A stretch of DNA of 64,000 bases from Chloroflexota bacterium (GTDB lineage: Bacteria > Chloroflexota > Anaerolineae > UBA4142 > SHND01), in NCBI GenBank assembly GCA_029778615.1, contig JAKOPZ010000208.1, forward strand, positions 1 to 64,000. The letters run 5' to 3'. A program made the translations under genes and the position numbers. The notes beneath the pieces are model-generated. The model worked only from the letters and a program-made list of their open reading frames with translations. It searched no databases and was not told the origin of the DNA. Of this stretch, positions 784 to 60,421 are shown piece after piece. Every line of letters starts with the position of its first letter. Position 1 is the first letter of the stretch.

Positions 784-1181
784 TTTCTCGACGCTGGTGG
801 ATTTTTTTGTTTGCGCTGATGTTGTTGTCCATTTTTGGCATTTCTCTCGGCGCGGATTTGCAATTGCTGCCACTCTCGCGTATCCGTATCCCGTCCTATG
901 ACAAGTTTGGACATTTTTTTCTGTACGGCATTCTCGCGTTCCTCTTGCATCTCGCGCTGCAAATTCGCGCGTGGAACATCGCGCGCGTGCGCGTTCCGAT
1001 TGCGTTTTTTATTGTGACCGCGTTGTGCGTCCTCGATGAAGTGCAGCAAATGTTTGTGAGCAGCCGCGCAGCGGACGTTTCCGATTTTGTCGCGGATGTG
1101 CTGGGAATCCTTGCGTTTTTGGCATTGGCAAACCTTTGGGGACATAAGGCGACTGCAAAGTCCCTTGACAAGGATACCTAA
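780..1181 (+). CDS. VanZ-like membrane protein; the C-terminal 14 codons are supplied by an inserted MITE-like element
   Basis: 133 aa with multiple TM segments and VanZ-like hydrophobic motifs. The ORF reads into repeat copy A. Removing the element restores an alternative C-terminus (NLWGQKSLDANAKRARIKA). Confidence 0.55.
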   Translation: MISRRWWIFLFALMLLSIFGISLGADLQLLPLSRIRIPSYDKFGHFFLYGILAFLLHLALQIRAWNIARVRVPIAFFIVTALCVLDEVQQMFVSSRAADVSDFVADVLGILAFLALANLWGHKATAKSLDKDT

Positions 1182-1292
1182 TGTGCAACACTTTTGTCAT
1201 TTCGAGCGGAGCGAGAAATCTCGCAAGGCGCGAATGAGATTTCTCGCAAAGACGGCTCGAAATGACAATTGGCGCGACTTTGCAGTTGCCTT
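1146..1292. mobile_element. MITE-like element copy A
   Basis: 17-bp terminal inverted repeats (AAGGCGACTGCAAAGTC at 1146..1162; its inverse complement at 1276..1292). The internal imperfect hairpin is GTCATTTCGAGCGG..GAGAAATCTC..GAGATTTCTC..GCTCGAAATGAC. Flanked by the 10-bp direct repeat TTTGGGGACA at 1135-1144 and 1294-1303. Inverse orientation of copy D. Confidence 0.6.
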
Positions 1293-1399
1293 GTTTGGGG
1301 ACAAAAGTCACTTGACGCAAATGCCAAGCGCGCTAGAATAAAGGCGTAAGCGCATGACAATTGCTGAGGTTGTCAGCGCTTGTCGAGGGAGTTACGAAA

Positions 1400-5070: not shown

Positions 5071-5084
5071 TCTTTTTGTCGTCT

Positions 5085-5160
5085 TTCCGAACGGAGTGAG
5101 GAATCTCGCTGCGCGAAGTGAGATTTCGCGCTCCGCTCGAAATGGCAAATCTGCGTCATG
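5085..5160. repeat. degenerate copy B of the hairpin repeat family (GAGATTTC...GCTCGAAATG core)
   Basis: Shares the GAGATTTCGCGCTCCGCTCGAAATGGCAA and TCTGCGTCATG segments with copies A and E. Confidence 0.4.
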
Positions 5161-5396: not shown

Positions 5397-6515
5397 TCAT
5401 TCGTCATTCGTCATTCGTCTTGACTTTTGCAACGCGTTTTCGATTTCATCTGCAACGCTTGGATTCAAATCCGCGTACGCGTGCAAGAGACCGAAATTTC
5501 CCGCTTGCATCATGTCGCCGTACGGCACCGCAAAATAGGGATTCAATTCCGAATGTACAAGCATCGAGCGACGCGGTCCCGTTACTGCCAAAAAATCCAA
5601 GGGCTGCGGGCGCGTATCGAACAGCACCGCGCCGTGTCCTTGCGAATTAAAAATCGCGTCGTTCGTCAATGTGCCGTCCGCCAACTGCCGCAAAAAATTT
5701 TCGAGTTGCGCTTGTTTTAATTCGCCAGTGTGATGTTCCAAGACACCGGAAATCGCGCCGTCGGTGAAACGAAAGGCGAGCGCGTGAAAATTTCCCAAGT
5801 TGGCAATGATGGCGTTTTTGTGTGCGGCGACGAAATCATCATCCAGCGCGCCGCGCACCGCCGCCGGCGCCGTGTCCATTACCAGCAGGGGCGAGCCCAT
5901 GTGACTGCCCTGTATGCTCTCCGCCACCGCGCGCATCCGCGTTAGGCGTTCGGGAATTTCGTCGCGCATGAACGCAAAGCCCGAAAGCTTGCCGGTTTCG
6001 CGAATGCGCTGCGCGAGGAATTCAAAACGAAACGTGCGGTCGCTCATGGCGGGCGGCGCGTTGCCATGGTCAAACACTGCGACGGCAAGCGCGTCAGACT
6101 CGAATGCAACGCCGAACGCGTTCAACGCACGCTCAATCGCCTCCAAATCTACATCGCGCATCATCACGCGCGTGGCGTCGCGCCCTAGCGCTTCATCTTG
6201 AGCCACAACGCGAATGCCCATCGCCGCAACCTTGTCCAACTCGTCGTTGAAACTCAACGCGGCATCGGGCGTCGCATAAATCGGCAAACCCGCGCGCACG
6301 TGGTCTTCCGCCGCCCAATTGCACGGACCGCCACCCATGATGGTTCCGGTCAGGAAAACGGTTTCGCCGCGCCGGGTTGCCGCGCGAATTTGGTTCGCGA
6401 CGCGAACGGTCGGCGAAGGCATCACCAGCTGCAAACAATTTTCGATTTCGGTTGTCGAATCGAACAAGAGAATGTCCTGCGTGCCGGTGCCAATGTCAAT
6501 GCAGAGGATTTTCAT
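5397..6515 (-). CDS. DUF1786-like ASKHA-superfamily protein
   Basis: N-terminal MKILCIDIGTGTQDILL phosphate-1 motif of sugar-kinase/Hsp70/actin fold. The C-terminal MTNDE is encoded by the CATTCGT tandem word repeat. Confidence 0.55.
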   Translation of the reverse strand: MKILCIDIGTGTQDILLFDSTTEIENCLQLVMPSPTVRVANQIRAATRRGETVFLTGTIMGGGPCNWAAEDHVRAGLPIYATPDAALSFNDELDKVAAMGIRVVAQDEALGRDATRVMMRDVDLEAIERALNAFGVAFESDALAVAVFDHGNAPPAMSDRTFRFEFLAQRIRETGKLSGFAFMRDEIPERLTRMRAVAESIQGSHMGSPLLVMDTAPAAVRGALDDDFVAAHKNAIIANLGNFHALAFRFTDGAISGVLEHHTGELKQAQLENFLRQLADGTLTNDAIFNSQGHGAVLFDTRPQPLDFLAVTGPRRSMLVHSELNPYFAVPYGDMMQAGNFGLLHAYADLNPSVADEIENALQKSRRMTNDE

Positions 6516-7262: not shown

Positions 7263-8240
7263 ATGCGCGATTCGTTCGACCGCGAAATCCATTATCTGCG
7301 TGTGTCGCTGACCGACCGTTGTAATTTTCGGTGCGTGTATTGTATGCCCGAAAAGGGTGTGGTGTTTCATCCCCACGCGCATCATTTGAGCGATGAAGAA
7401 TTGCTGCGCGTCATTCGCATCATGTCCACGCTCGGCTTTGACCGCGTGCGTTTGACCGGCGGCGAACCGACCGTGCGTCCAAACTTGGTGCCGATTGTGG
7501 AAGCGATTGCGGCGATGCCGAACATCAAAGAAATCGCGATGACGACCAACGCGCTGCGTTTGGAAAAAATTGCGGAACCTCTCGCCCGCGCGGGTTTGAA
7601 CCGTGTCAACATCAGCATTGATACGCTTGACGCGGAACGCTTTACCAAAATTACGCGTTTCGGAAAATTGGAAGCGGTGTGGCGCGGCATTCTCGCCGCC
7701 GAGCGCGCGGGGCTGACGCCGATTAAATTGAACTCGGTGATTGTGCGCGGCTACAACGAGCAAGATATTATTGACTTGGCGCGCTTGACGTTGGAGCACG
7801 CGTGGGATATGCGCTTTATTGAAATGATGCCGCTCGGTTCGATTGCCGATTTTCAAGTCGAGAGCATTGTCACGGCGGACGAAATGAAAGCGCGCGTCCA
7901 AGACGCGTTCGGCGAATTGCTTCCGCTGGAATGGAACGGGCACGACCCCGCGCGCCCGTATCGTTTGCAAGGCGGACAGGGCACGCTCGGTTTCATCAGT
8001 TCCGTCAGCGCGCCGTTTTGCGAAGGATGCGACCGCGTGCGTTTGACTTCGGATGGGCGCTTGCGATTGTGTTTGCTGCGCGACGACGAAGTGGAATTGT
8101 TGCAGCCAATTCGCGACGGTGCGAGCGATGCGGAATTGCGCGAATTGATTGCACGCGGGGTGTACAACAAACCGTGGGGACACGGGCTCGGCGATAACAT
8201 TATTGCGGAATCGCGGATTATGAGCCAGATTGGCGGTTAA
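7263..8240 (+). CDS. moaA: GTP 3',8-cyclase (molybdenum cofactor biosynthesis protein A)
   Basis: Radical-SAM CNFRCVYC motif and C-terminal second-cluster cysteines (CEGCDRVRLTSDGRLRLC). Confidence 0.9.
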   Translation: MRDSFDREIHYLRVSLTDRCNFRCVYCMPEKGVVFHPHAHHLSDEELLRVIRIMSTLGFDRVRLTGGEPTVRPNLVPIVEAIAAMPNIKEIAMTTNALRLEKIAEPLARAGLNRVNISIDTLDAERFTKITRFGKLEAVWRGILAAERAGLTPIKLNSVIVRGYNEQDIIDLARLTLEHAWDMRFIEMMPLGSIADFQVESIVTADEMKARVQDAFGELLPLEWNGHDPARPYRLQGGQGTLGFISSVSAPFCEGCDRVRLTSDGRLRLCLLRDDEVELLQPIRDGASDAELRELIARGVYNKPWGHGLGDNIIAESRIMSQIGG

Positions 8241-10185: not shown

Positions 10186-11042
10186 TTGTCTGTCGTCCGT
10201 CGTCGCATTACCGCATCCGTCATGCGGCATGCGCGGACTGCCGCTTGAACATCATGCACACGCACCATGTCCGCGCCTTGCGCGATGCACCACACGAGCG
10301 TTGCCAGCGTGCCCTCCAAGCGCTCCGGCACCGGCAAATTGAGCGTGAGTCCGATAACACTTTTGCGCGACGTGCCAATCAAAAGCGGAAGGTCTTGGAG
10401 CGCCGCATCCGTTTTGAATTCGTGCAAACGGCGGAGCAATTCCAAATTTTGTTGTAATCCTTTGCCAAAACCAATTCCCGGGTCGATAATGATTTTTCTA
10501 CGCGAAATTCCTGCGCGTGTTGCATCCTCCACGCGTGACGCGAGTTCCGAAGCAACCGCGCGCACAATATCCGGATTCTCGTACTCGACCTCATCATAAT
10601 GTCCGCCCCACGCGCTGCGGCGCGGCGGCGCGTCGCGATTGTGCATCAATACCACATACGCGTCGTGCGCGGCAATGACGTTTGCCATCCCAACATCGCG
10701 CGTCATTGCCCATACGTCGTTCACGATGGACGCGCCCGCGTCGAGCGCGCGTTGTGCCACCACCGCGCGTGAGGTGTCAATCGAAAGCGGAACCTTCACG
10801 CGCGCGGCAAGTTGTTTAATAACGGGCAGCACGCGCACCAATTCTTGGTCTGCATCAATGCGCGCGGAACCGGGGCGCGTGGATTCGCCGCCGACATCCA
10901 AAATGTCCGCGCCTTCGTCCACGAAACGCAAACCTTGCGCCACCGCCGCGTCCACATCCATCACCCCATCGCCCGAAAACGAATCGGGCGAGACATTCAC
11001 AATGCCCATGATGTAGGTGCGCGAGCCCCCTGCAAAATCCAT
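10182..11042 (-). CDS. folP: dihydropteroate synthase
   Basis: Pterin-binding motifs (GIVNVSPDSFSGDG, DVGGESTRPG, GxSRKS). Start uncertain: GTG at 11060, ATG at 11042 or ATG at 11009. Confidence 0.85.
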   Translation of the reverse strand: MDFAGGSRTYIMGIVNVSPDSFSGDGVMDVDAAVAQGLRFVDEGADILDVGGESTRPGSARIDADQELVRVLPVIKQLAARVKVPLSIDTSRAVVAQRALDAGASIVNDVWAMTRDVGMANVIAAHDAYVVLMHNRDAPPRRSAWGGHYDEVEYENPDIVRAVASELASRVEDATRAGISRRKIIIDPGIGFGKGLQQNLELLRRLHEFKTDAALQDLPLLIGTSRKSVIGLTLNLPVPERLEGTLATLVWCIAQGADMVRVHDVQAAVRACRMTDAVMRRRTTDK

Positions 11043-11110: not shown

Positions 11111-12069
11111 TTACTCGTATGGACCGAGAAATCGTTCCCCGTTAAAATGAATCAAGTGATCGGGGGTTTCAGAAACCCAGACATCCGTTTCCCAAGCAAT
11201 CTCCCTCAGATACCGCATCATTATTTTTCTGGAAGGAAACGCAGTCACAAAAACCAGAGGCAATAAAGAATCTTTGAAAAGATCTTTCAACTCATTGTGT
11301 CGCTTGATACCAATTGGACCGTGACTCGTCACAGCTTCGAGGAGGACGAGCCAACCCTTCGCGGGGTAATGAACGACTATGTCAGGCATCTTGCCGTGTT
11401 TGCTCAAGTGAATGCCAAGCGCTTTGAGAGCGAATTCATCGTAAACTTGCAATTTCTTACCCGCGTCTCCAAGGTAAATAACTTTGCCGTTCGGCGTATA
11501 TCGTGGGCAAAATTCGTGCACAATGTCACGAATCAATTTATTTTGCCCGCCGTTAGGTGCACTTCCAAGCCATCAGGCAAAGAGACCGGGTAAAGTTGTA
11601 GGTTTCTCTCACGCGCTTTGAGCCGATTCAGTTCTTTGGCAGTCCGCAAGTATGTGGCAAGATTACGGTCCCAGTCCTCAGTCCCAAACGACTGAATGAG
11701 ATTCAAAAAGGTTGGTTCAATTTGATAACGTGTATCAGGACTGTTGATAGGTCTGTCCAGGTCGTCAGGGTTTTTGACTACCAAGCCAAGTTGCAGGAAC
11801 TGGTGCATTGTATAACGTCGCACGGTTTCTCTTGTATTCTCAGCGTAGGTCACGCCAAAATTTTTGGCAAAAAAGCCCATCAGACCATGAATTCCTACCA
11901 ACGGTGCGGAAGCTGCCTGCCATGAGGTAGATGGTCGCACATTGGTCAAACCAAGTAATGTCAGAGCCGAACGCTGATTCTGTTGTTCTTTGGGAGCACC
12001 AATTGCCGCGAGAATCTGGCGAGCCTGCTCAATTTTTCGTTTTGCTTGTAGTGAAAGGTTATTACCCAT
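11111..12069 (-). pseudogene. BsuBI/PstI-family type II restriction endonuclease, split by a frameshift
   Basis: An internal ATG at 12069 with AGGAG 9 nt upstream begins a PstI-N-like domain (MGNNLSLQAKRKIEQARQIL...). This domain lies in the same frame as, and inside, the methyltransferase ORF. The C-terminal catalytic-domain ORF (11111..11536) is in a different frame. The two meet at a TTGA overlap within GGCAAAATAAATTGA. Combined length of about 320 aa matches PstI-family enzymes. Confidence 0.5.
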
Positions 12070-13638
12070 CTTCAATACTCCTAAAACAAGCTCGTCTAGT
12101 TCCTCTTGAGGGGGAAAACTCCCGCGTATATTTTCTCCAATCGTAAAAAGTTGTTCCCTACTTGGATAGACGAGATTGCGCAAATCTGTCGCATTGATCT
12201 GTGTGTGTCCACTAAATTGTCGAAAAAACTCGTCCACCATTGTTGAGTTCAAGTAAGCTGTAAGCCCGCGCGCCAAGGTTGGGTCGAGACCCCTGCCATT
12301 CATATGAAAGTAATTCAAATGATTCTCAATACCGTACCACTCGCCTTGGAGTTGGTGTGGGTCAAGTACTGCAGCAACCACACGCCGAATTTCCTCTTTT
12401 GCCGTTAAACGTTTGACAAGGACATATGTGTCACATGGTATCAACAAATTTTGTTGAGTGGCACTTTTGTCAATCGCAATGGGTTTGCGCGAGCCCCCAT
12501 TCGGGAAAACGACAAAGCCGTGCATCAAGTTATGTGGATGCAGGAGGGGAAAACTTGAAGAATTCAAACTGTACTGTAGTAAAGGAGTAGCCCGAAATTC
12601 GACAACCTTTCCCGTAGAAACTTGAATCCCTAAATCCTCTAATTTTCCTTCTAATACTCCAATTGTATTTCCGAGCGCATAATTCATTTCATCCGGTACT
12701 ATCCGTAGAAAAGATTCCGCATCTTGGGGTTTAATGACTTGGGTGGCAGGAACAGTTCTCTGTGTAATTAGGTCGTCCCCAGCCCCCTCCGTTGTTGAAA
12801 TGATGATGTGAGTTCCTTGCGGTTTCTTTGCGGCTGCCAAAATGATGGTCTCTTGTAAAACGCGGTCTCGTTTAAACACATCCTTGCGGTCATCAAACAG
12901 ATGAATTCGCTGCAAGGACATATGCTTGAGCAGAAATTTGCGAAAGGGTCGAAAATAAAGACCGTTTGCAAAACTGCGCGGAATAATTGCAACTAACTCT
13001 CCATCATTTTGCAAGAGTTTCGTCGCGAGCCACAAGAACGCCGCATACTGATTGGTAGTATCAACCTCCGCGCGCTTGAGTCGCTGGACTAGATTTGAAC
13101 GCCTCGACAATTTTCCATAGGGTGGGTTTAGTATCGCTGCATTAAACAGTCCGAAGCTGGGACGCAACAGTGTTCGCCCGCGCGCCAAATCCAAAGCAAT
13201 TTCCAAAAAATCATCTTGAATGATCTGGTATTGAAATGAGATAGGAGATTGCCTCAGTAACTTGGCAGCACTTTCGTACGCGGATTCAAGAAACGGAACG
13301 AGCCGTGCTTCAAGTTCAAAGGCTGTTAAATGAATTTGACGTGGGTGTCTTTGCCACTCGCTTGCTTGCGCCAAGAGTGCGATAGAAAGTGTGCCCAGCC
13401 CCGCTCCTGCATCAATAACTCGCAACTCGGTTGGGTGCTTTTCAAAGAGAGAAGCCATAAACTGCGCGGTAGGAACAGGTGTAAAGAACTGTCCATGCTC
13501 AGCGCGATTCGGCAGAGTGGGCGCAATTTCAAGTGCCAGCTCCTCAATTCGCTGAAACAACTTTTCCCAACCAAGTTGCTTGGGGAATGTCGGCGATGCA
13601 TTTGCAATATCAACAGCAGAATTCAGATTTGCAATCAC
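11533..13638 (-). CDS. gamma-class N6-adenine DNA methyltransferase (Eco57I/PstI-like, TaqI-like C-terminal TRD); ORF continues without a stop into the REase N-domain
   Basis: Motif I VIDAGAGLGTL and motif IV NPPYGK. TaqI_C-like region of about residues 360-505. GTG start overlaps the stop of the upstream MBL gene (GTGA). Region GC is lower (about 47-48% by eye). Confidence 0.75.
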   Translation of the reverse strand: MIANLNSAVDIANASPTFPKQLGWEKLFQRIEELALEIAPTLPNRAEHGQFFTPVPTAQFMASLFEKHPTELRVIDAGAGLGTLSIALLAQASEWQRHPRQIHLTAFELEARLVPFLESAYESAAKLLRQSPISFQYQIIQDDFLEIALDLARGRTLLRPSFGLFNAAILNPPYGKLSRRSNLVQRLKRAEVDTTNQYAAFLWLATKLLQNDGELVAIIPRSFANGLYFRPFRKFLLKHMSLQRIHLFDDRKDVFKRDRVLQETIILAAAKKPQGTHIIISTTEGAGDDLITQRTVPATQVIKPQDAESFLRIVPDEMNYALGNTIGVLEGKLEDLGIQVSTGKVVEFRATPLLQYSLNSSSFPLLHPHNLMHGFVVFPNGGSRKPIAIDKSATQQNLLIPCDTYVLVKRLTAKEEIRRVVAAVLDPHQLQGEWYGIENHLNYFHMNGRGLDPTLARGLTAYLNSTMVDEFFRQFSGHTQINATDLRNLVYPSREQLFTIGENIRGSFPPQEELDELVLGVLKMGNNLSLQAKRKIEQARQILAAIGAPKEQQNQRSALTLLGLTNVRPSTSWQAASAPLVGIHGLMGFFAKNFGVTYAENTRETVRRYTMHQFLQLGLVVKNPDDLDRPINSPDTRYQIEPTFLNLIQSFGTEDWDRNLATYLRTAKELNRLKARERNLQLYPVSLPDGLEVHLTAGKIN

Positions 13639-14570
13639 AATTCAATCGTCATGCCTTCGCGCGCGACAAATGTTGTCGGACGCACCAATTGCGCGCGCTT
13701 TTCAATTTCTTCCAACGTCTCGTCATCGTGTTCCGGCTCGTGATGAAACAACGCGAGCTGTTTTACATTTGCCGCGTTCGCCGTTTCAACTGCCATGCGC
13801 CACGTGGAATGTCCCCACCCTTGACGCGGCGTGGGCGCATCCAAATACAACGCGTCCGTATATTGTGCGTCGTGCGCCATCAAGTCCGCGCCCTGCGCAA
13901 ATTTGATGAGCCGCTGATAGTTGCCCACATACGATTCCACATCGGTGGCGAATACAAACGCGCGTCCTTGAAAATTCACGCGATACACAAAAACGCCTTG
14001 CGGGTGCGCCGCCGATTTCAAAACCTGCACGCACAGCGCGCCGTTGTCCACCGCCTGTGCAATCGCTTTTTCGTCGCGCTGTGACCACATCACGCGCGGT
14101 TCGCCCGGCGTGCCATGGAACATGATAACTTCGCCTTCGTTCAAATTACGCACCACGCGTTCACACGGCAGTTCGTCTACGGTGATTGGAAAAACGGGCG
14201 GCAGCATCGAGAGCGCCAGAACGCGCGCCAAATCTTCGTTCAGACTCTTTGGACCAAAAATATACAAAGTGGTCAATTGATAACGCGCGGGCGTGAAAAA
14301 GGGAAAGCCCTGCGTGTGGTCGTGGTGTGTGTGCGTGAAAAAAATGGTGAGATTGAGTGGATTCGACTCGGGCTTGTACTCTTGCGTCAACAGTTTGCCG
14401 AGATGGATAATGCCGGTGCCCGCGTCAAATATCAAATTATGTTCGCCCGCGCGCACGTGCACACAGGGAGTGTTACCGCCGATGCGCGCGGTTTTGGGCC
14501 CCGGCGTCGGGTAACTTCCGCGCACCCCATAGAATGTTACAGCAAAAGGTTCCGCCATGATTTGGTTCAA
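13635..14570 (-). CDS. MBL-fold metallo-hydrolase
   Basis: HTHHDH zinc-binding motif and beta-lactamase-fold pattern. Confidence 0.75.
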   Translation of the reverse strand: MNQIMAEPFAVTFYGVRGSYPTPGPKTARIGGNTPCVHVRAGEHNLIFDAGTGIIHLGKLLTQEYKPESNPLNLTIFFTHTHHDHTQGFPFFTPARYQLTTLYIFGPKSLNEDLARVLALSMLPPVFPITVDELPCERVVRNLNEGEVIMFHGTPGEPRVMWSQRDEKAIAQAVDNGALCVQVLKSAAHPQGVFVYRVNFQGRAFVFATDVESYVGNYQRLIKFAQGADLMAHDAQYTDALYLDAPTPRQGWGHSTWRMAVETANAANVKQLALFHHEPEHDDETLEEIEKRAQLVRPTTFVAREGMTIEL

Positions 14571-17827: not shown

Positions 17828-20260
17828 ATGAGCCGACGCCGCGCGCAGCCAGCGCAACCTCTGGAAACACCGACCGAACAATCCAACACGATTCGGATTT
17901 ATCCGCTTGTCCCCGCACGTGACACGGTGGTTTTTCCGCGTCTCATTTCGCCCATCACGGCGGGACGCGAACGCTCCGTGCGCGCGATTGAAGACGCGAT
18001 GCTGCGCGACCAAAAAGTTGTGGTGTTTGCGCAAAAAGACCCTGAACTGCAAGAACCAGGGATTGACGATTTGTATCTCGTCGGCACGGTGCTTTCCATC
18101 GGACGCATGTTGCGAATGCCCGACGGCACCACAAGCGTTTTGGGACAGGGCGAAGCGCGGGCGCGCCTTTTGGAAATTGTCCAGACCGACCCGTTTATTC
18201 AAGTGCGCGTCGCCGAAATCAAGGAGCCGCAAGACAACTCTATCGAAACACAGGCATTGAGCCGCGCCGTGCTCGCACAGTTTGAAAAAATCGTGCGGCT
18301 CAACGCCAATTTGCCCGAAGAGGTGTTTGTCGCGGCGATGAATGCCGAAGGCGCGGGCGCGCTCGCCGACCTCATCGGCTCTTCGCTTAATCTTGACATG
18401 CTCCCGCGTCAAGAGCTGCTCGAAACCATTGACCCCGTCGAACGCCTGAACAAAATTTCGCGCGTGCTGGAAAACGAACTTCAAGTCCTTGAACTGCAAA
18501 GCAAAATTCACAATCAAGTGCAGGAAGAGGTGGACAAGAATCAGCGCGAATATTATTTGCGCGAACAGATGCGCGTGATTCAGCACGAACTGGGCGAAAT
18601 GGACGCGCAAGCGCGCGACGTACACGAGCTGCGCGAAAAAATTCTCGCCGCCGAAATGCCGGACGAAGCGCGCGCCAAAGCGGAACACGAACTGGAGCGG
18701 CTCCAACAAATGCCATTTGGCTCGCCCGAACTTGGCATCATTCGCACGTATCTCGATTGGCTAATTCAACTGCCGTGGAAAACGGCGACGGAGGACAATC
18801 TGAATATTCCCGCCGCCGCCAAACTTTTGGACGAACAACATTACGGGCTCAAACGCGCCAAAGAACGCATTTTGGAATACATCGCCGTCCGAAAACTCGC
18901 GGCAGAAAAAATGTCCACGCCCGTCTTGTGTTTTGTCGGTCCGCCGGGCACGGGCAAGACTTCGATGGGACGCAGCATTGCCGAAGCGCTCGGCAGAAGT
19001 TTTGTGCGCGTTTCGCTCGGCGGCGTGCGCGACGAAGCCGAAATTCGCGGACATCGCCGCACCTATATCGGCGCGCTGCCCGGACGCGTCATTCAAACCA
19101 TGAAACGCGCCAAGTCCATCAATCCCGTTTTCATGCTCGACGAGATTGACAAAGTAGGCGCGGATTTTCGCGGCGACCCCAGCGCGGCGCTTTTGGAAGT
19201 GCTTGACCCCGAACAAAACAATTCATTCAGCGACCACTATTTAGAAGTGCCGTATGATTTATCGCATGTCATTTTCATCACCACCGCGAATTTGCTCGAC
19301 CCGATTCCGCCCGCGCTGCTCGACCGCATGGAAGTGATTGAATTTCCCGGCTATATCGAAGAAGAAAAACTCGCCATTGCCAAGCAGTTCATCATTCCGC
19401 GCCAGTTGGAACAACACGGGCTCGTCGGCAGACCAAAATTTTCGGACGAAGCGATTCGCACCTTGATTCGCGATTACAGCTATGAAGCCGGTGTTCGCAA
19501 TCTCGAACGCGAGACGGCGCAAGTGTGCCGCAAAATTGCGCGCGCGGTTGCCGAAGGCAAACCGATTCCCGCAACGGTGGGCAAAGAATCCCTGTACAAG
19601 TATCTCGGTCCCGCAAAATTTTCGTACGGCATGAAAGAAGAACAAGACCAAATCGGCGTCGCGACCGGACTCGCCGTAACGAGCGCCGGCGGCGATACGA
19701 TGGCAATTGAAGTGACGCTCATGCCGGGCAAAGGCGGGCTGATGCTCACCGGGCAATTGGGTGAAGTGATGCAGGAATCCGCGCAAGCGGCGCTTTCTTA
19801 TGCGCGCACCAATGCGAAACCATTGGGGCTGCGAAGCGATTTTGATAAACTCGACATTCACATTCACGTCCCCGAAGGCGCCATCCCAAAGGACGGACCT
19901 TCGGCGGGCATCACCATCGCCACCGCGCTCGTTTCCGCCTTGTCACAACGCGCCGTACACAAGGATGTGGGCTTTACCGGAGAAATTACTTTGCGCGGGC
20001 GCGTGCTGCCCATTGGCGGCTTGCGCGAAAAAGTTATCGCCGCGCATCGCGCCGGGTTGAAAACACTCGTCATTCCCAAAAAGAATAAAAAAGATTTGGT
20101 AGATTTGCCGCGCCGCGTCCAGCGTAATCTGAATCTGATTCTCGTCGAAAGCATGGACGAGGTACTGCCCGTTGCGTTGACACCAACGCAAACGCCCATG
20201 CCCAAGCGCGCGCCCGCGCGGCGCAAGCCGAACGCGCGCGGCGCGCACGTCGCGGTATAA
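17828..20260 (+). CDS. lon: ATP-dependent Lon protease (endopeptidase La)
   Basis: LON N-domain, AAA+ Walker A GPPGTGKTS and protease domain PKDGPSAGIT with the catalytic Ser. ATG at 17828; the ORF-track start at 17813 is TTG. Confidence 0.9.
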   Translation: MSRRRAQPAQPLETPTEQSNTIRIYPLVPARDTVVFPRLISPITAGRERSVRAIEDAMLRDQKVVVFAQKDPELQEPGIDDLYLVGTVLSIGRMLRMPDGTTSVLGQGEARARLLEIVQTDPFIQVRVAEIKEPQDNSIETQALSRAVLAQFEKIVRLNANLPEEVFVAAMNAEGAGALADLIGSSLNLDMLPRQELLETIDPVERLNKISRVLENELQVLELQSKIHNQVQEEVDKNQREYYLREQMRVIQHELGEMDAQARDVHELREKILAAEMPDEARAKAEHELERLQQMPFGSPELGIIRTYLDWLIQLPWKTATEDNLNIPAAAKLLDEQHYGLKRAKERILEYIAVRKLAAEKMSTPVLCFVGPPGTGKTSMGRSIAEALGRSFVRVSLGGVRDEAEIRGHRRTYIGALPGRVIQTMKRAKSINPVFMLDEIDKVGADFRGDPSAALLEVLDPEQNNSFSDHYLEVPYDLSHVIFITTANLLDPIPPALLDRMEVIEFPGYIEEEKLAIAKQFIIPRQLEQHGLVGRPKFSDEAIRTLIRDYSYEAGVRNLERETAQVCRKIARAVAEGKPIPATVGKESLYKYLGPAKFSYGMKEEQDQIGVATGLAVTSAGGDTMAIEVTLMPGKGGLMLTGQLGEVMQESAQAALSYARTNAKPLGLRSDFDKLDIHIHVPEGAIPKDGPSAGITIATALVSALSQRAVHKDVGFTGEITLRGRVLPIGGLREKVIAAHRAGLKTLVIPKKNKKDLVDLPRRVQRNLNLILVESMDEVLPVALTPTQTPMPKRAPARRKPNARGAHVAV

Positions 20261-30389: not shown

Positions 30390-31550
30390 TTAAAACGCCG
30401 TTACAATTTCCACAATCTCGCGCGCCGCACGCGTCCAAGAAAAACGTTTGACATTCGCGCGTCCGCCTTCGACCAGCGCCTGACGCAGTGGCTCATCATC
30501 CAAAGCAGTTTGGAGCGCGCGCGTCATCGCGCGCACATCACGCGGGTCAAAATACAATGCGCCTTCGCCTGCCACTTCGGGGAGGGACGACGCGTTGGAG
30601 CTCACGAGCGGCGTCCCGCACGCTTGCGCCTCCAACGCGGGAAACCCGAATCCTTCATACAACGATGGCACAACCGCGAGTTGTGCGCCGCCGTACAGCG
30701 CGGGCAAATCCGCGTCCGGCACATAATCCAAAAATTTCACGCGCGCGTCCAGATTCAATGCGCGCACGCGTTGAAAAATGGAATCGGACAGCCAGCCCTT
30801 TTTGCCCACAATGACGAGCGTGTGCGCGTGCGGCAGCGCGGCGAACGCTTCCAACAGACGCGCGTAATTCTTGCGCGGTTGGATTGTGCCGACGCTGATG
30901 AGATAGGGCGCCGCGAGCGCGTATTTTGCGCGCACGCGTTCAATTTCGTTTTGCGGCGCCGGTTTGCCAAGAGCCGCGTTGCACGAAGGATAGACGACGC
31001 GAATTTTTTCGGACGACGTGCCGTAAAATTTCGCCACATCGTCGCGCGTGGCGTACGAATCCGCAAGGACCACTCGCGCGTTTTGCGCGTTCCAACGCGT
31101 GGAAACATCCAAATACGCGCGTGCGAAAAATGGATGCGCGTCGGGGAAAAATTTATACCCAAGGTCGTGAACGGTGACGATGGAATTGCGCGGGTGAATC
31201 GGCGGGAGCACATGCGCGGGGACAAACAACGCGTCGGGCGGGCGCATCAGCATTTCAAAAGCCAAACGCGTGTGGGTCCACAAACGCGGAAAGGGCAGCG
31301 CGCAGATTTCGTAATTGTTGGTGGGAGGAAAAAAGTTTTGGGATGGATGCGCGCGCGTATAGAGTCGAAAGAACCACGGCGAATCAATTTGCAGCAGCGC
31401 CTCAATCAACGCACGCGAATAATATTCCGTCCCCGTCGGCGCATCGCTCAACGCGCGGCTCGCGTCAATTCCCAGAACCGACGAACGACGAACGACGGAG
31501 GACGAACGCCGCGCAAACTGTTTTGAAAATCGTATTTCGTCTTGGGTCAT
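30390..31550 (-). CDS. glycosyltransferase family 4
   Basis: GT-B/GT4 C-terminal EGFGxP E motif (YEGFGFPALEAQACGTPLV). The N-terminal RRSSSVVRRSSV is encoded by the ACGAAC word repeat. Confidence 0.8.
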   Translation of the reverse strand: MTQDEIRFSKQFARRSSSVVRRSSVLGIDASRALSDAPTGTEYYSRALIEALLQIDSPWFFRLYTRAHPSQNFFPPTNNYEICALPFPRLWTHTRLAFEMLMRPPDALFVPAHVLPPIHPRNSIVTVHDLGYKFFPDAHPFFARAYLDVSTRWNAQNARVVLADSYATRDDVAKFYGTSSEKIRVVYPSCNAALGKPAPQNEIERVRAKYALAAPYLISVGTIQPRKNYARLLEAFAALPHAHTLVIVGKKGWLSDSIFQRVRALNLDARVKFLDYVPDADLPALYGGAQLAVVPSLYEGFGFPALEAQACGTPLVSSNASSLPEVAGEGALYFDPRDVRAMTRALQTALDDEPLRQALVEGGRANVKRFSWTRAAREIVEIVTAF

Positions 31551-37312: not shown

Positions 37313-37317
37313 CATTT

Positions 37318-37418
37318 AGGACTTGCGATTAGCTGTCACTTCGAGCGGTTTTTGCGAGAAATCTCACACATCAATACCGAGATTTCTCACTCCGTTCGAA
37401 ATGACAAGCAAAAGTCCT
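37318..37418. mobile_element. short MITE-like hairpin repeat, copy C
   Basis: Ends AGGACTTGCG...GTCACTTCGAGCGG and CCGTTCGAAATGAC...AAAAGTCCT are inverted repeats. Internal GAGAAATCTC / GAGATTTCTC as in copies A, D and E. Confidence 0.5.
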
Positions 37419-37443
37419 AACATTAAAAAACGCGCGCAGGTCT

Positions 37444-42486: not shown

Positions 42487-43125
42487 TCATGCCATTTCGT
42501 CACTGTGCCCGCGCTCCAAAAGCCGCGCCATCGCGGCAAGCCCGCGCCGCTGTAACGCTTTGATTGCCATTTCAGTCTTGCCCATCATTTTGGCAATTTG
42601 CGCGCTGGTGAATCCCTCTTCAAAACGCATCAACAGCACCGTTTGTTGTTCTTCGGTCAATCGCGCCAACGCGTTTTGTAAATCCACCCGCGTCAAATGC
42701 AAATTCAAATCAAATGCCTCATCCGGCAAATCCGCTTCCGCATCTTCCGACAGCGGCTCTGCCGCGCGAATCTTTTGGCGGCGATAATCGTCAATCACCA
42801 TATTCCGCGCAATTGTAAAAATCCAGCCGGTTAGCACCAACGCCGCGTCGTCGCCGCTCGGACGAAAGCGTTCCACACTTTCCAGCATCCGCACAAACAC
42901 TTCATTGGTCAACTCTTCGGCACGCGGGCGGTCCTGCACGCGATAATAAATAAATCGAAAAACGCGGTCACTAAAAAGATGGTAAATTTGTGTGAGCGCG
43001 CGTTCTTCGTACTGTTGGGCGCGCCGCAGCAACTCGCGCGCGTCCTGCTGCGACAAGAGTTGATGAAGTGTATCCGACTCGTTTCCGGGCGCGAGCGCCT
43101 GTGCCAACATGAATTTGTCTTTCAT
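42487..43125 (-). CDS. RNA polymerase ECF-type sigma-70 factor
   Basis: Region 2 (FIYYRV...EELTNEVFVRM) and region 4 HTH (FTSAQIAKMMGKTEMAIKALQRRGL). Confidence 0.85.
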   Translation of the reverse strand: MKDKFMLAQALAPGNESDTLHQLLSQQDARELLRRAQQYEERALTQIYHLFSDRVFRFIYYRVQDRPRAEELTNEVFVRMLESVERFRPSGDDAALVLTGWIFTIARNMVIDDYRRQKIRAAEPLSEDAEADLPDEAFDLNLHLTRVDLQNALARLTEEQQTVLLMRFEEGFTSAQIAKMMGKTEMAIKALQRRGLAAMARLLERGHSDEMA

Positions 43126-43235
43126 ACATCAAAACGCACGCGCAGCGGAAAAAGATACCGCTCGCGCGCCGTCCATTCCATCTGCTTATCTTAACTCACA
43201 CTTGGAAATTGCCAAGATGTCCCATGTCCCATTTC

Positions 43236-43387
43236 AAGGCAACTGCAAAGTCGCGCCAATTGTCATTTCGAGCGGATGCGAGAAATCTCAACCTTTCGTG
43301 ACAAATGAGATTTCTCACAGAGTTTACCCCGAAGGATTGAGGGGTTCGAAATGACATATCCTTGTCAAGGGACTTTGCAGTCGCCTT
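43236..43387. mobile_element. MITE-like element copy D with 19-bp flanking direct repeats
   Basis: 17-bp terminal inverted repeats AAGGCAACTGCAAAGTC and GACTTTGCAGTCGCCTT. The internal hairpin is GTCATTTCGAGCGG...CGAAATGAC. GATGTCCCATGTCCCATTT occurs at 43216-43234 and at 43388-43406. Confidence 0.65.
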
Positions 43388-43456
43388 GATGTCCCATGTC
43401 CCATTTATTCGCGGCAAACCATCAAGCGGCAATTGAGTTGTGCTACAATATCGCGT

Positions 43457-52234: not shown

Positions 52235-52310
52235 AGGAACTGCACAATGGTCAGTGCGCAACGCGCCGCGTTGCATTGTGCATTGTGCATTCTGCGTCGA
52301 GCATTGATTC

Positions 52311-59465: not shown

Positions 59466-60205
59466 TAGATTTGAATGGCAAAGCCGCGCTGGTGACCGGC
59501 GCATCGCGCGGCATCGGGCGCGCGATTGCACTGCGCCTCGCCGAGTTGGGCGCCAAGGTTGCGGTCAACTATCTCAAGAGCGCGGACGAAGCGACGCAAG
59601 TGGTGCAAGAAATTAAAAGCAAAGGCGGCGAAGCGATTGCGGTGCAAGGCGATGTGAGTCAATTCACCGCCGCGCAAAATGTCGTCAAAGCCACTACCGA
59701 CGCGTTTGGGCGGCTGGATATTTTGGTCAATAATGCAGGCACGACGCGCGACAATTTGCTCGCGTTGATGAAAGAAGAAGAATTTGATTACATTATCGCC
59801 GCCGACTTGAAGAGTGTTTTTAATTGTTCCAAAGCGGCGCTGCGGCAAATGATGCGGCAAAAATATGGACGCGTGGTCAACATTACGTCCGTGTCGGGCG
59901 TGATGGGCAATCCGGGACAAACGAATTATTCCGCGGCGAAAGCGGGCGTGATTGGATTCACCAAAGCGATGGCAAAAGAGTACGCGCCGAAAAATATCGC
60001 GGTAAACGCCGTCGCCGCCGGATATATTCCTACCGATTTGACGAACGCGCTGCCGCAAGATGTCAAAGACAACATCGTGAAATTTATTCCGATGCAGCGT
60101 TTTGGTACCGTCGAAGAAGTGGCGGATGTGGTCGCGTTTCTTGCGTCGGACCGCGCGTCGTACATCACCGGACAGACTCTGGCAGTGGATGGAGGAATGG
60201 TGTAA
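59462..60205 (+). CDS. fabG: 3-oxoacyl-ACP reductase
   Basis: SDR motifs TGASRGIG, NNAG and YSAAK. Confidence 0.9.
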   Translation: MIDLNGKAALVTGASRGIGRAIALRLAELGAKVAVNYLKSADEATQVVQEIKSKGGEAIAVQGDVSQFTAAQNVVKATTDAFGRLDILVNNAGTTRDNLLALMKEEEFDYIIAADLKSVFNCSKAALRQMMRQKYGRVVNITSVSGVMGNPGQTNYSAAKAGVIGFTKAMAKEYAPKNIAVNAVAAGYIPTDLTNALPQDVKDNIVKFIPMQRFGTVEEVADVVAFLASDRASYITGQTLAVDGGMV

Positions 60206-60239
60206 TTGGGATTGGTGATATTAGATTTATGATTTCACC

Positions 60240-60351
60240 TTACGCATGTCATTTCGAATCCCTCAATCCTTCGGGGTAAACTCTGTGAGAAATCTCAGTT
60301 TTTTCCACCGAGATTTCTCGCCAGACCGCTCGAAATGACAATTCTGCGTAA
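60240..60351. mobile_element. MITE-like hairpin repeat, copy E
   Basis: Terminal inverted repeats TTACGCATGTCATTTCGA and TCGAAATGACAATTCTGCGTAA. The inner module (CCCTCAATCCTTCGGGGTAAACTCTGTGAGAAATCTC) is shared with copy D in opposite orientation. Flanked by TTATGATTT-type direct repeats. Confidence 0.55.
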
Positions 60352-60421
60352 CATGAGTTATGATTTTAGATTTGGTGAAACGAAAATCATAAACCGCAAA
60401 TCATAAACCATAAATCTCTGC

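Follow-up and report, generated by a model that had tools for sequence, protein, structure and literature searches.

The 3′ end of the vanZ-like gene in the 64-kb stretch of DNA analysed here, referred to as the window, very probably carries a real insertion of a mobile element. We consider it likely, with good confidence, that this element is a non-autonomous transposon of the MITE type, 149–154 nt long and composed of a shell around a hairpin module. The original prediction had read the site as a past transposition into vanZ, and this reading is borne out by empty sites in relatives, by the tails of orthologous proteins and by further copies of the element with different flanks. The choice of target looks non-random, and the targets resemble the left end of the element itself.

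The element at vanZ (copy A) occupies positions 1145–1293, is 149 nt long, has no coding capacity and ends in terminal inverted repeats of 17/18 nt. The 17-nt arms, AAGGCGACTGCAAAGTC at 1146–1162 and GACTTTGCAGTTGCCTT at 1276–1292, are complementary except for one G/A mismatch, and when the terminal T/G is counted the repeats become 18 nt long, with the left repeat (IRL, TAAGGCGACTGCAAAGTC) at 1145–1162 and the right repeat (IRR, GACTTTGCAGTTGCCTTG), obtained from a repeat search within the window, at 1276–1293, both on the + strand. IRL is the same in a second copy in the window (copy B) and, over a 15-nt core, in a metagenomic copy (L096). The tips of the family read C/TAAGG and the bounding sequence C/TAAGGCRACTGCAAAGTC. 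Beyond 18 nt the two ends are asymmetric, as a subterminal palindrome, CCTTGACAAGG (1163–1173, + strand), is found at the left end only; it is kept in copy B and in L096 (CCCTTGACAGGG), and contains a −35-like TTGACA at 1165–1170 that has no right-end counterpart. Copies of the target-site duplication TTTGGGGACA lie at 1135–1144 and, as located by a direct-repeat search, at 1294–1303 (+ strand); this sequence occurs twice in 64 kb, both times flanking copy A, against an expectation of 0.14, and is present as a single copy in the relatives L097 and L098. The inverted repeats, the direct repeat and the hairpin had thus all been placed correctly in the original prediction.

Folding of 1145–1293 gave −45 kcal/mol, with z = −9.0 relative to dinucleotide shuffles. 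Rfam covariance models run on 900–1700 returned nothing relevant at E-values up to 10. A six-frame peptide query with the element against 5.8 billion proteins had a sole match, P0007, which is a read-through gene call. Two other interpretations of the element were discarded on reading the sequence. An inward promoter starting from the left-end TTGACA was set aside because no −10 box lies 16–18 nt downstream in any copy. The core motif of an integron attC site is RYYYAAC/GTTRRRY, of which only the AAC...GTT core fits, and the integron context is absent.

The vanZ-like ORF (133 aa, 780–1181, + strand) was assigned by the match of PF04892 to the identical protein P0001 and to orthologs, and its last 12 codons and stop lie within the element. 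The present tail reads ...LANLWGHKATAKSLDKDT before the stop, whereas removal of the element and one repeat copy yields ...LANLWGQKSLDANAKRARIKA with a stop at 1347–1349. The insertion lies 15 codons ahead of this stop, so that the tail QKSLDANAKRARIKA has been exchanged for HKATAKSLDKDT and 12 new codons stand in place of 15 old ones, with the VanZ domain left intact. The expectation that excision restores the vanZ frame with another C-terminus was therefore right, although the figures first given for it, 14 codons and 19 aa, are only approximate. The displaced ancestral tail, KSLDANAKRARIKA plus stop, is now untranslated and lies at 1304–1349 (+ strand), as judged from alignment with orthologs and relatives. 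It opens with AAAGTCACTTGAC (1304–1316), which is one base off 13 nt of the left end of the element; the relatives are exact over those 13 nt. The new vanZ tail again contains KSLD, a coincidence of the similarity between left end and target. Orthologs P0002 and P0003, 63–65% identical, end in WGQKSLDAKRE(G/R)VTIK(R/L), which matches the excision-restored tail. The only protein identical to the present vanZ is P0001, from a 99-kb NCBI contig that most likely belongs to the source genome itself; accordingly no ortholog was found to have the present C-terminus without the element, P0002 and P0003 both carrying the restored type of tail. Downstream of the element, a conserved ORF for a 44-aa membrane peptide (1400–1534, + strand), followed by a terminator at 1550–1577, is untouched by the insertion, as is its promoter. 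A weak terminator-like site is predicted at 1274–1289.

Empty sites were found in relatives at both window loci. At the vanZ locus, L097 and L098 each have one uninterrupted target and no element, and since the tails of the orthologs agree with the excised frame, the comparison of the vanZ 3′ end with relatives lacking the insertion came out as the original prediction would have it. The L097 site reads TTTTTTGGGACA|AAAGTCCCTTGACGCAAAG and that of L098 reads TTTTTGGGGACA|AAAGTCCCTTGACGCG, sharing the form TT(T/G)GGGACA|AAAGTCCCTTGACGC, with the target written as ...GGGGACA|AAAGTCCCTTGAC. Synteny in L097 and L098 is complete, comprising FTCD, vanZ, the 44-aa ORF, hutI and SBP. For the locus of copy B, PgeF orthologs (76–80% identical) led to relatives that keep the divergent arrangement of the sigma-factor gene and pgeF; the names that go with the PgeF matches point to an Anaerolineae/Chloroflexi lineage as the source. 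The spacer between these genes measures 157 nt in the relatives L099, L101 and L103 versus 332 nt in the window, a difference that approximates the 154-nt element plus an 18-bp duplication. L099 contains one homologous copy-B target, ...TTTGCCAACATGCTGATAGTCCCATCGC..., and no element. The closest relatives compared are 63–86% identical to the source across the proteins compared, and no strain-level presence/absence polymorphism was seen among relatives at this level of identity.

With no more than three mismatches, the 17-mer inverted repeat occurs four times in the window, compared with 0.31 expected, in each case at copy A or copy B. Copy B is 154 nt long and inverted relative to copy A (43,235–43,388, − strand), with the IRR-type end at 43,235–43,252, the inner module at 43,260–43,357 and the IRL-type end at 43,371–43,388. 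The target-site duplication of copy B, which reads ATGTCCCATGTCCCATTT on the + strand, measures 18 bp (19 if an ambiguous G is included) and occupies 43,217–43,234 and 43,389–43,406. Between A and B the shells show 100% identity, over 31 nt on the left and 39 nt on the right. When 241 million metagenome records were scanned with a 22-mer taken from the left end, L096 was the sole further match. This copy, on the unrelated contig Ga0226835_1000797 (~50% G+C), has the inverted repeats CATGGCAACTGCAAAGTC and GACTTTGCAGTTGCCATG and a diverged variant of the inner hairpin, and its flanks CTGCAGGG(A) and CTGCAGGG(G) form a duplication of 8–9 bp. The three DNA copies A, B and L096 measure 149, 154 and 143 nt. 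A fourth copy is contained in P0007, a nucleotidyltransferase-type protein from a 126-kb NCBI contig, the first ~60 residues of which are a translated B-type copy; this copy is probably on another contig of the same genome and was analysed through back-translation of its codons only. The codons of P0007 fit only one duplication length, 10 bp (ACGAAYTATA), where the chance of any fit at lengths of 8–20 is 0.9%. The family is very rare in public data, with one metagenome match and one match among 5.8 billion proteins.

The duplications all differ in sequence: TTTGGGGACA at copy A, ATGTCCCATGTCCCATTT at copy B, CTGCAGGG at L096 and the inferred ACGAAYTATA at P0007. The flanking repeat does not belong to the element, as it differs at every copy and is single in the element-free relatives at both loci of the window. 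Over the four copies the duplications are 9, 10, 10 and 18 bp long, an inconstancy that is atypical for a MITE. The 10-bp duplication originally proposed is thus confirmed for the vanZ site, but it does not extend to a fixed length for the family. We rejected a longer, 23-bp duplication (TTTGGGGACA plus AAAGTCCCTTGAC) whose left copy would have received a secondary insertion of 12 nt, since copy B and L096 share the left end AAGGCGACTGCAAAGTCCCTTGAC in unrelated flanks. The assignment of GGGACAT to the element was rejected too, because P0007 is unable to encode GGGACAT and the CAT in L096 is part of the inverted repeat.

The inner part of copy A is a two-tier hairpin module (TTGTCATTTCGAGC ... 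GCTCGAAATGACAA, 1194–1268, + strand) with perfect 14-nt arms at 1194–1207 and 1255–1268. The internal hairpin that had been predicted is therefore present, but it is not a simple feature of the element; it is a separately dispersed module common to at least two shell families. The hairpin consensus TTGTCAT(T/G)... ...ATGACAA is also found outside the shell of the vanZ element, with modules elsewhere in the window at ~5076–5150, 37,334–37,407, 43,260–43,357 (in copy B) and 60,246–60,343, as well as in relatives. The module at ~5076–5150 is orthologous with one in L097, the stems of copy A are those of 13,576–13,647 in L099 with differing loops, and the inner part of copy B is 98% identical over 52 nt to the module at 60,246–60,297, the shells again differing. 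The 37-kb module sits in a different MITE, with inverted repeats TAGGACTT.. and ..AAGTCCTA and a 3–5-bp duplication (ACATT). This MITE is located between the S20 terminator and the lexA promoter and is missing from three relatives, each of which has a single ACATT. The shared cassette may have arisen via nested insertion or gene conversion. In a covariation check the stems were almost invariant within the lineage, and the additional hairpin seen in copy B and the 60-kb module interfered with the alignment.

The target pattern is drawn from the four copies, one of them known through back-translation only. All copies were oriented as copy A, with the final base of the right inverted repeat as the origin of numbering. 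On this side the flanks contain CTTGAC at +18 in copy A, CTTGGC at +19 in copy B and CTTGAC at +18 in L096; with a background for CTTGRC of 7.4 × 10^−4 per position in the window, three matches within a two-position span correspond to P ~3 × 10^−9, before post-hoc correction. P0007 is codon-compatible with CTTGRC at +19 (chance 1.2%). The word is thus at +18/+19 and in the same orientation in 4/4 copies, counting P0007 by codon compatibility, and in each of them the right end faces the beginning of the next gene. Relative to CTTGRC, the junction at the right end has a constant position and that at the left end varies.

The element has CTTGAC in its own left end, at +20 from the tip. The native vanZ of the relatives shares AAAGTCCCTTGAC with this left end at 13/13 nt, and with a 2-nt gap 19/23 positions are equal, including GGGGAC versus GGCGAC; in the L096 flank the part common with the left end is TCaCTTGACAG. 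The 13-mer AAAGTCCCTTGAC is exact in the window only in copies A and B. It occurs once more with one mismatch, directly after the right duplication of copy A, and allowing two mismatches revealed no further site in the window.

In two cases the flanking word is the −35 box of a promoter conserved among relatives. The promoter-like sequence TTGACG-16-TAGAAT of the 44-aa ORF (1312–1339, + strand) has a −35 box starting 19 nt from the right end of copy A and reads TTGACG-16-TACAAT in L097. That of the sigma-factor gene (42,487–43,125, − strand), TTGGCA-16-TAAGAT (43,188–43,215, − strand), has a −35 box starting 20 nt from the IRR-type end of copy B, and L099 keeps both of its hexamers with a diverged spacer. 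In L096 no recognisable −10 box accompanies the adjacent TTGACA, so that the common denominator of the targets is likeness to the left end and not promoter function, and promoter targeting as such would not seem to be borne out by this copy. Where copy B has its 18-bp duplication, GGGACAT is natively doubled. At this site the distance to the −35 box is as in L099, which indicates that the doubling preceded the insertion.

No transposase was found by Pfam searches of ~50 ORFs in the window, a survey that is not exhaustive since some called ORFs have no Pfam match at all; to this extent the original statement that the window lacks a transposase stands. Its corollary that the element is non-autonomous also holds, the inverted repeat (up to three mismatches) being confined in the window to the two short copies. 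A scan of genome contigs with the 17-mer inverted repeat gave 95 single matches, approximately the chance number, none of which had a partner repeat or the hallmark of the inner module. Scans of viral contigs returned no copy and one chance match inside a coding region (L105), blastn against plasmids with copy A and the L096 copy gave no match, and among representative proteins the open frame of copy B matched only P0128, a repeat protein that is unrelated. In the literature the repeat strings turned up as primer coincidences only, and no Y1/HUH gene is present in the window. As neither an autonomous partner nor a transposase was found, we infer the chemistry of transposition.

Several other explanations of these data were weighed against transposition with a target preference. 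It is very hard to credit that the element is ancestral and was lost from the relatives by precise excision or direct-repeat recombination. Direct repeats of 10–18 bp could mediate precise deletion, and relatives at 63–86% protein identity are not close, but independent precise losses would be needed at two loci in at least two lineages each (L097 and L098; L099/L101 and L103). The restored vanZ tail is moreover conserved coding sequence in the orthologs, and the complete identity of the A and B shells over 31 + 39 nt points to recent spread instead of ancient residence. A further explanation, which we regard as improbable, has the hairpin itself under selection, as a transcription terminator, insulator or RNA-stability element spread by recombination or gene conversion, with the MITE features being incidental. 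It would account for inner modules that are near-identical between species, such as the stems shared by copy A and L099 (13,576–13,647), for the orthologous module at ~5076–5150 in L097 and for the 98% identity of the inner part of copy B to 60,246–60,297 within another shell. Gene conversion, however, makes neither target duplications nor insertions at empty sites, copy B has no U-tract after the hairpin, Rfam matches are absent and little covariation can be seen within the lineage.

The position of the copies ahead of promoters might instead be due to survivorship, in which insertion is random and only harmless sites such as gene ends and promoter-distal spacers persist. This agrees with the small number of copies, four only, and with the fact that all of them lie where damage is small, in the vanZ 3′ tail or in intergenic spacers. 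Selection of this kind leaves unexplained the spacing of +18/+19, exact to 1 nt, the single orientation in 4/4 copies (P ~3 × 10^−9 for the three DNA copies) and the 13-nt identity of the native vanZ target with the left end. We therefore judge survivorship to be unlikely, though not to the degree of the explanations above, and lean towards a true target preference. The resemblance of the target to part of the element could also reflect a homology- or sequence-guided recombinase, either a tyrosine/serine integrase or a DEDD enzyme of the IS110 type that uses a guide RNA, in which case the flanking repeats would be a shared core and not repair duplications. The variable repeat length, the GGGACA common to the flanks of A and B, and GGGACAT at three left junctions all fit such an enzyme. 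Nevertheless, the repeats differ between copies and the one inferred for P0007 is without GGGACA; the CAT of the L096 ‘GGGACAT’ is inverted repeat and not target; the resemblance lies downstream of the duplicated segment and not within it; and DDE elements typically have terminal inverted repeats that are long and perfect. A guided recombinase accordingly has little probability.

Transposition with a target preference may then be pictured as follows. A shell made of 18-nt terminal inverted repeats and asymmetric subterminal sequence encloses the conserved two-tier hairpin. A transposase encoded elsewhere would bind the inverted repeats, staggered cuts would insert the element, and repair would duplicate the target. 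DDE-type cut-and-duplicate chemistry is likely, although one DDE transposase would not usually give duplications that vary over 9–18 bp. Most probably a pseudo-left-end in the target is recognised, either by the transposase or by a factor with affinity for CCCTTGACA, which is specific to the left end. The orientation is always the one in which the flank, read on from the right end, resembles another left end. The left-end motif holds a −35-like TTGACA, for which reason pseudo-ends would often coincide with real promoters, and by this coincidence the element would land just upstream of promoters without destroying them. The target-like motif CCCTTGAC is in the left end and not in the right, which makes a simple picture of a transposase that binds both ends and a pseudo-end incomplete.

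More tentatively, the element may be part of a homing system that seeks a bipartite mimic of the left end (GGGAC ... CTTGAC) and inserts in one orientation with the right end exactly 18–19 nt upstream; the word coinciding with −35 boxes would then provide a ‘safe-haven’ upstream of promoters, and the hairpin would pass as a cassette between MITE shells that are unrelated. We give this full scheme less than an even chance. If true, the exchange of the cassette among shells would amount to a second layer of mobility or to gene conversion. We know of no description of ‘safe-haven’ landing upstream of promoters for bacterial transposons.

Bacterial MITEs include Correia/NEMIS in Neisseria, RUP in pneumococcus, Nezha in cyanobacteria and MIC231, which is derived from IS231. 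The vanZ element has the features of a MITE, being smaller than ~600 bp and non-coding, with inverted repeats, differing duplications and several copies. Like the known bacterial MITEs it is under 200 nt, has terminal inverted repeats, a target duplication and a long hairpin, occurs in several copies per genome with insertion polymorphism relative to relatives, and can alter C-termini from sites at gene ends. It differs from them in its 9–18-bp duplications, in ends that are asymmetric past 18 nt and in a hairpin cassette that is found in other shells; no partner insertion sequence was found in the window or in the collections scanned.

The targeting has counterparts in other systems. IS30 inserts beside its own inverted repeats, exclusively forming IRL-IRR junctions, and the targeted pathway of IS911 is described as similar (PMC9333248). 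The vanZ element resembles both in inserting beside a likeness of its own end and in a strict orientation that brings the incoming right end up to a (pseudo) left end. IS30 joins its ends 2 bp apart, with 2-bp duplications at hot spots, whereas the vanZ element duplicates 9–18 bp of the outer part of the pseudo-end, and the resemblance of its target is strongest in the subterminal part that is specific to the left end. ISAjo2 insertions all have the same orientation and lie 5 bp away from a XerC site (PMC10132070), and the vanZ element is like ISAjo2 and the IS1202 ‘site hunters’ in keeping a fixed orientation and distance with respect to a particular DNA site to which a host protein binds. 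ISAjo2, however, has TGT/ACA tips, 5-bp duplications and XerC/dif targets, in contrast to C/TAAGG tips and a position 18–19 nt from a −35-like word. In other IS1202 subgroups the duplications are 3–5, >15 or 0 bp (PMC10132070).

The ends of the IS6 family have a GG tip, cTGTt and caaa motifs and an 8-bp duplication (PMC7986276). The inverted-repeat core GGCRACTGCAAAGTC has GG, CTG and CAAA in the same order, and the L096 duplication is 8–9 bp, but the GG of the vanZ element is 3 nt inside the tip with three paired bases outside it, the motif spacing is 2–3 nt shorter and there are also duplications of 10 and 18 bp, so that the resemblance to IS6 may serve as a weak lead and does not imply membership. 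REPs have a length of 20–40 nt, GTAG/CGTC heads and no target duplication (PMC3733652). REP/BIME (RAYT) elements and hairpin-ended IS200/IS605 derivatives are likewise dispersed, hairpin-forming and intergenic, a likeness that concerns the inner module above all; unlike REP/BIME, the vanZ element is 149 nt long, with C/TAAGG tips, terminal inverted repeats and duplications. It fits neither REP/BIME, the IS6 family, the IS30-type junction geometry nor any Rfam family.

The insertion of a MITE is in itself routine. It shows that transposons have been active recently in an uncultured lineage of Anaerolineae, and how elements of this kind change the tails of proteins and mislead gene callers, a case in point being P0007, with its false N-terminus of 60 residues that comes from translation of a copy. 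The sharing of the inner hairpin module gives a hint that small repeats in Chloroflexi evolve in a modular way. The target pattern, based on four copies, is the only part likely to surprise a specialist; if it holds genome-wide, it would offer a handle for identifying the responsible transposase and a simple model of how bacterial transposons find harmless landing sites.

The two-tier hairpin module that forms the inner part of the element (the MITE in the 3' end of vanZ) is also dispersed separately, in copies of 75–120 nt that follow the pattern TTGTCAT(T/G)CGAG...CTCG(A/C)AATGACAA. Such copies are found in the window at 5076–5150 and 60246–60343, in L097, the relative that is syntenic at the vanZ locus, at 8058–8125, and in L099, a relative at the sigma/pgeF locus, at approximately 10800–10890, 12728–12790, 13576–13647 and 19832–19951. 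Across species the loops of the module are variable and its stems nearly invariant. The window and L097 share one orthologous copy, which lies upstream of the DUF554 gene; another, between degV and recG, occurs in L099 and is missing from L102. No consistent flanking duplication was seen around the dispersed copies.

At 60200–60420 the module is enclosed in a third type of shell, whose inverted repeats are TTACGCA and TGCGTAA. A direct repeat of 9 nt, TTATGATTT, may flank it, and a 14-nt tandem repeat (60384–60416) adjoins the module. A different MITE, with inverted repeats TAGGACTT.. and ..AAGTCCTA, occupies 37316–37421 and has an inner hairpin of the same type as that of the element, together with a duplication of 3–5 bp (ACATT). 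It is inserted between the S20 terminator on one side and, on the other, the lexA promoter, which reads TTGACT-17-TATAAT and carries GAAC-N4-GTTC boxes. The relatives L099, L102 and L103 are all without this MITE, and ACATT is single there.

Downstream of vanZ, a conserved hydrophobic ORF of 44 aa (MNPLLSIALFWAILMTAMLLFGIACIKYGVYTSGD...) spans 1400–1534 and is kept in L097 (4433–4567); its promoter is its own and lies within the 3' end of vanZ, and a strong terminator follows at 1550–1577. Within hutI, the imidazolonepropionase gene, 4.6 perfect tandem copies of the heptanucleotide AATTTCG are located at 2182–2213 on the minus strand and translate as ...NSKFEIRNL...; the ortholog in L097, with an overall identity of 86%, has at this position a different insert, 15 residues longer and itself repetitive (RESQ..RESQ). 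Further 7-nt tandem repeats lie at 5397–5419, 31479–31508 and 52272–52306. The restriction-modification locus at 11111–13638 (minus strand) comprises a 701-aa ORF in which an Eco57I-type methylase domain occurs together with the N-terminal HTH domain of a BsuBI/PstI endonuclease, and an overlapping 141-aa ORF of its own for the endonuclease catalytic domain, and the gene is either frameshifted or else split in an unusual way.

Outside the window, on a 126-kb contig, the NCBI protein P0007 is of nucleotidyltransferase type (PF01909 and PF13427). The start of its gene call falls within a third copy of the element, so the first 60 or so residues of the protein are a translation of the repeat; this N-terminus is an annotation artefact.
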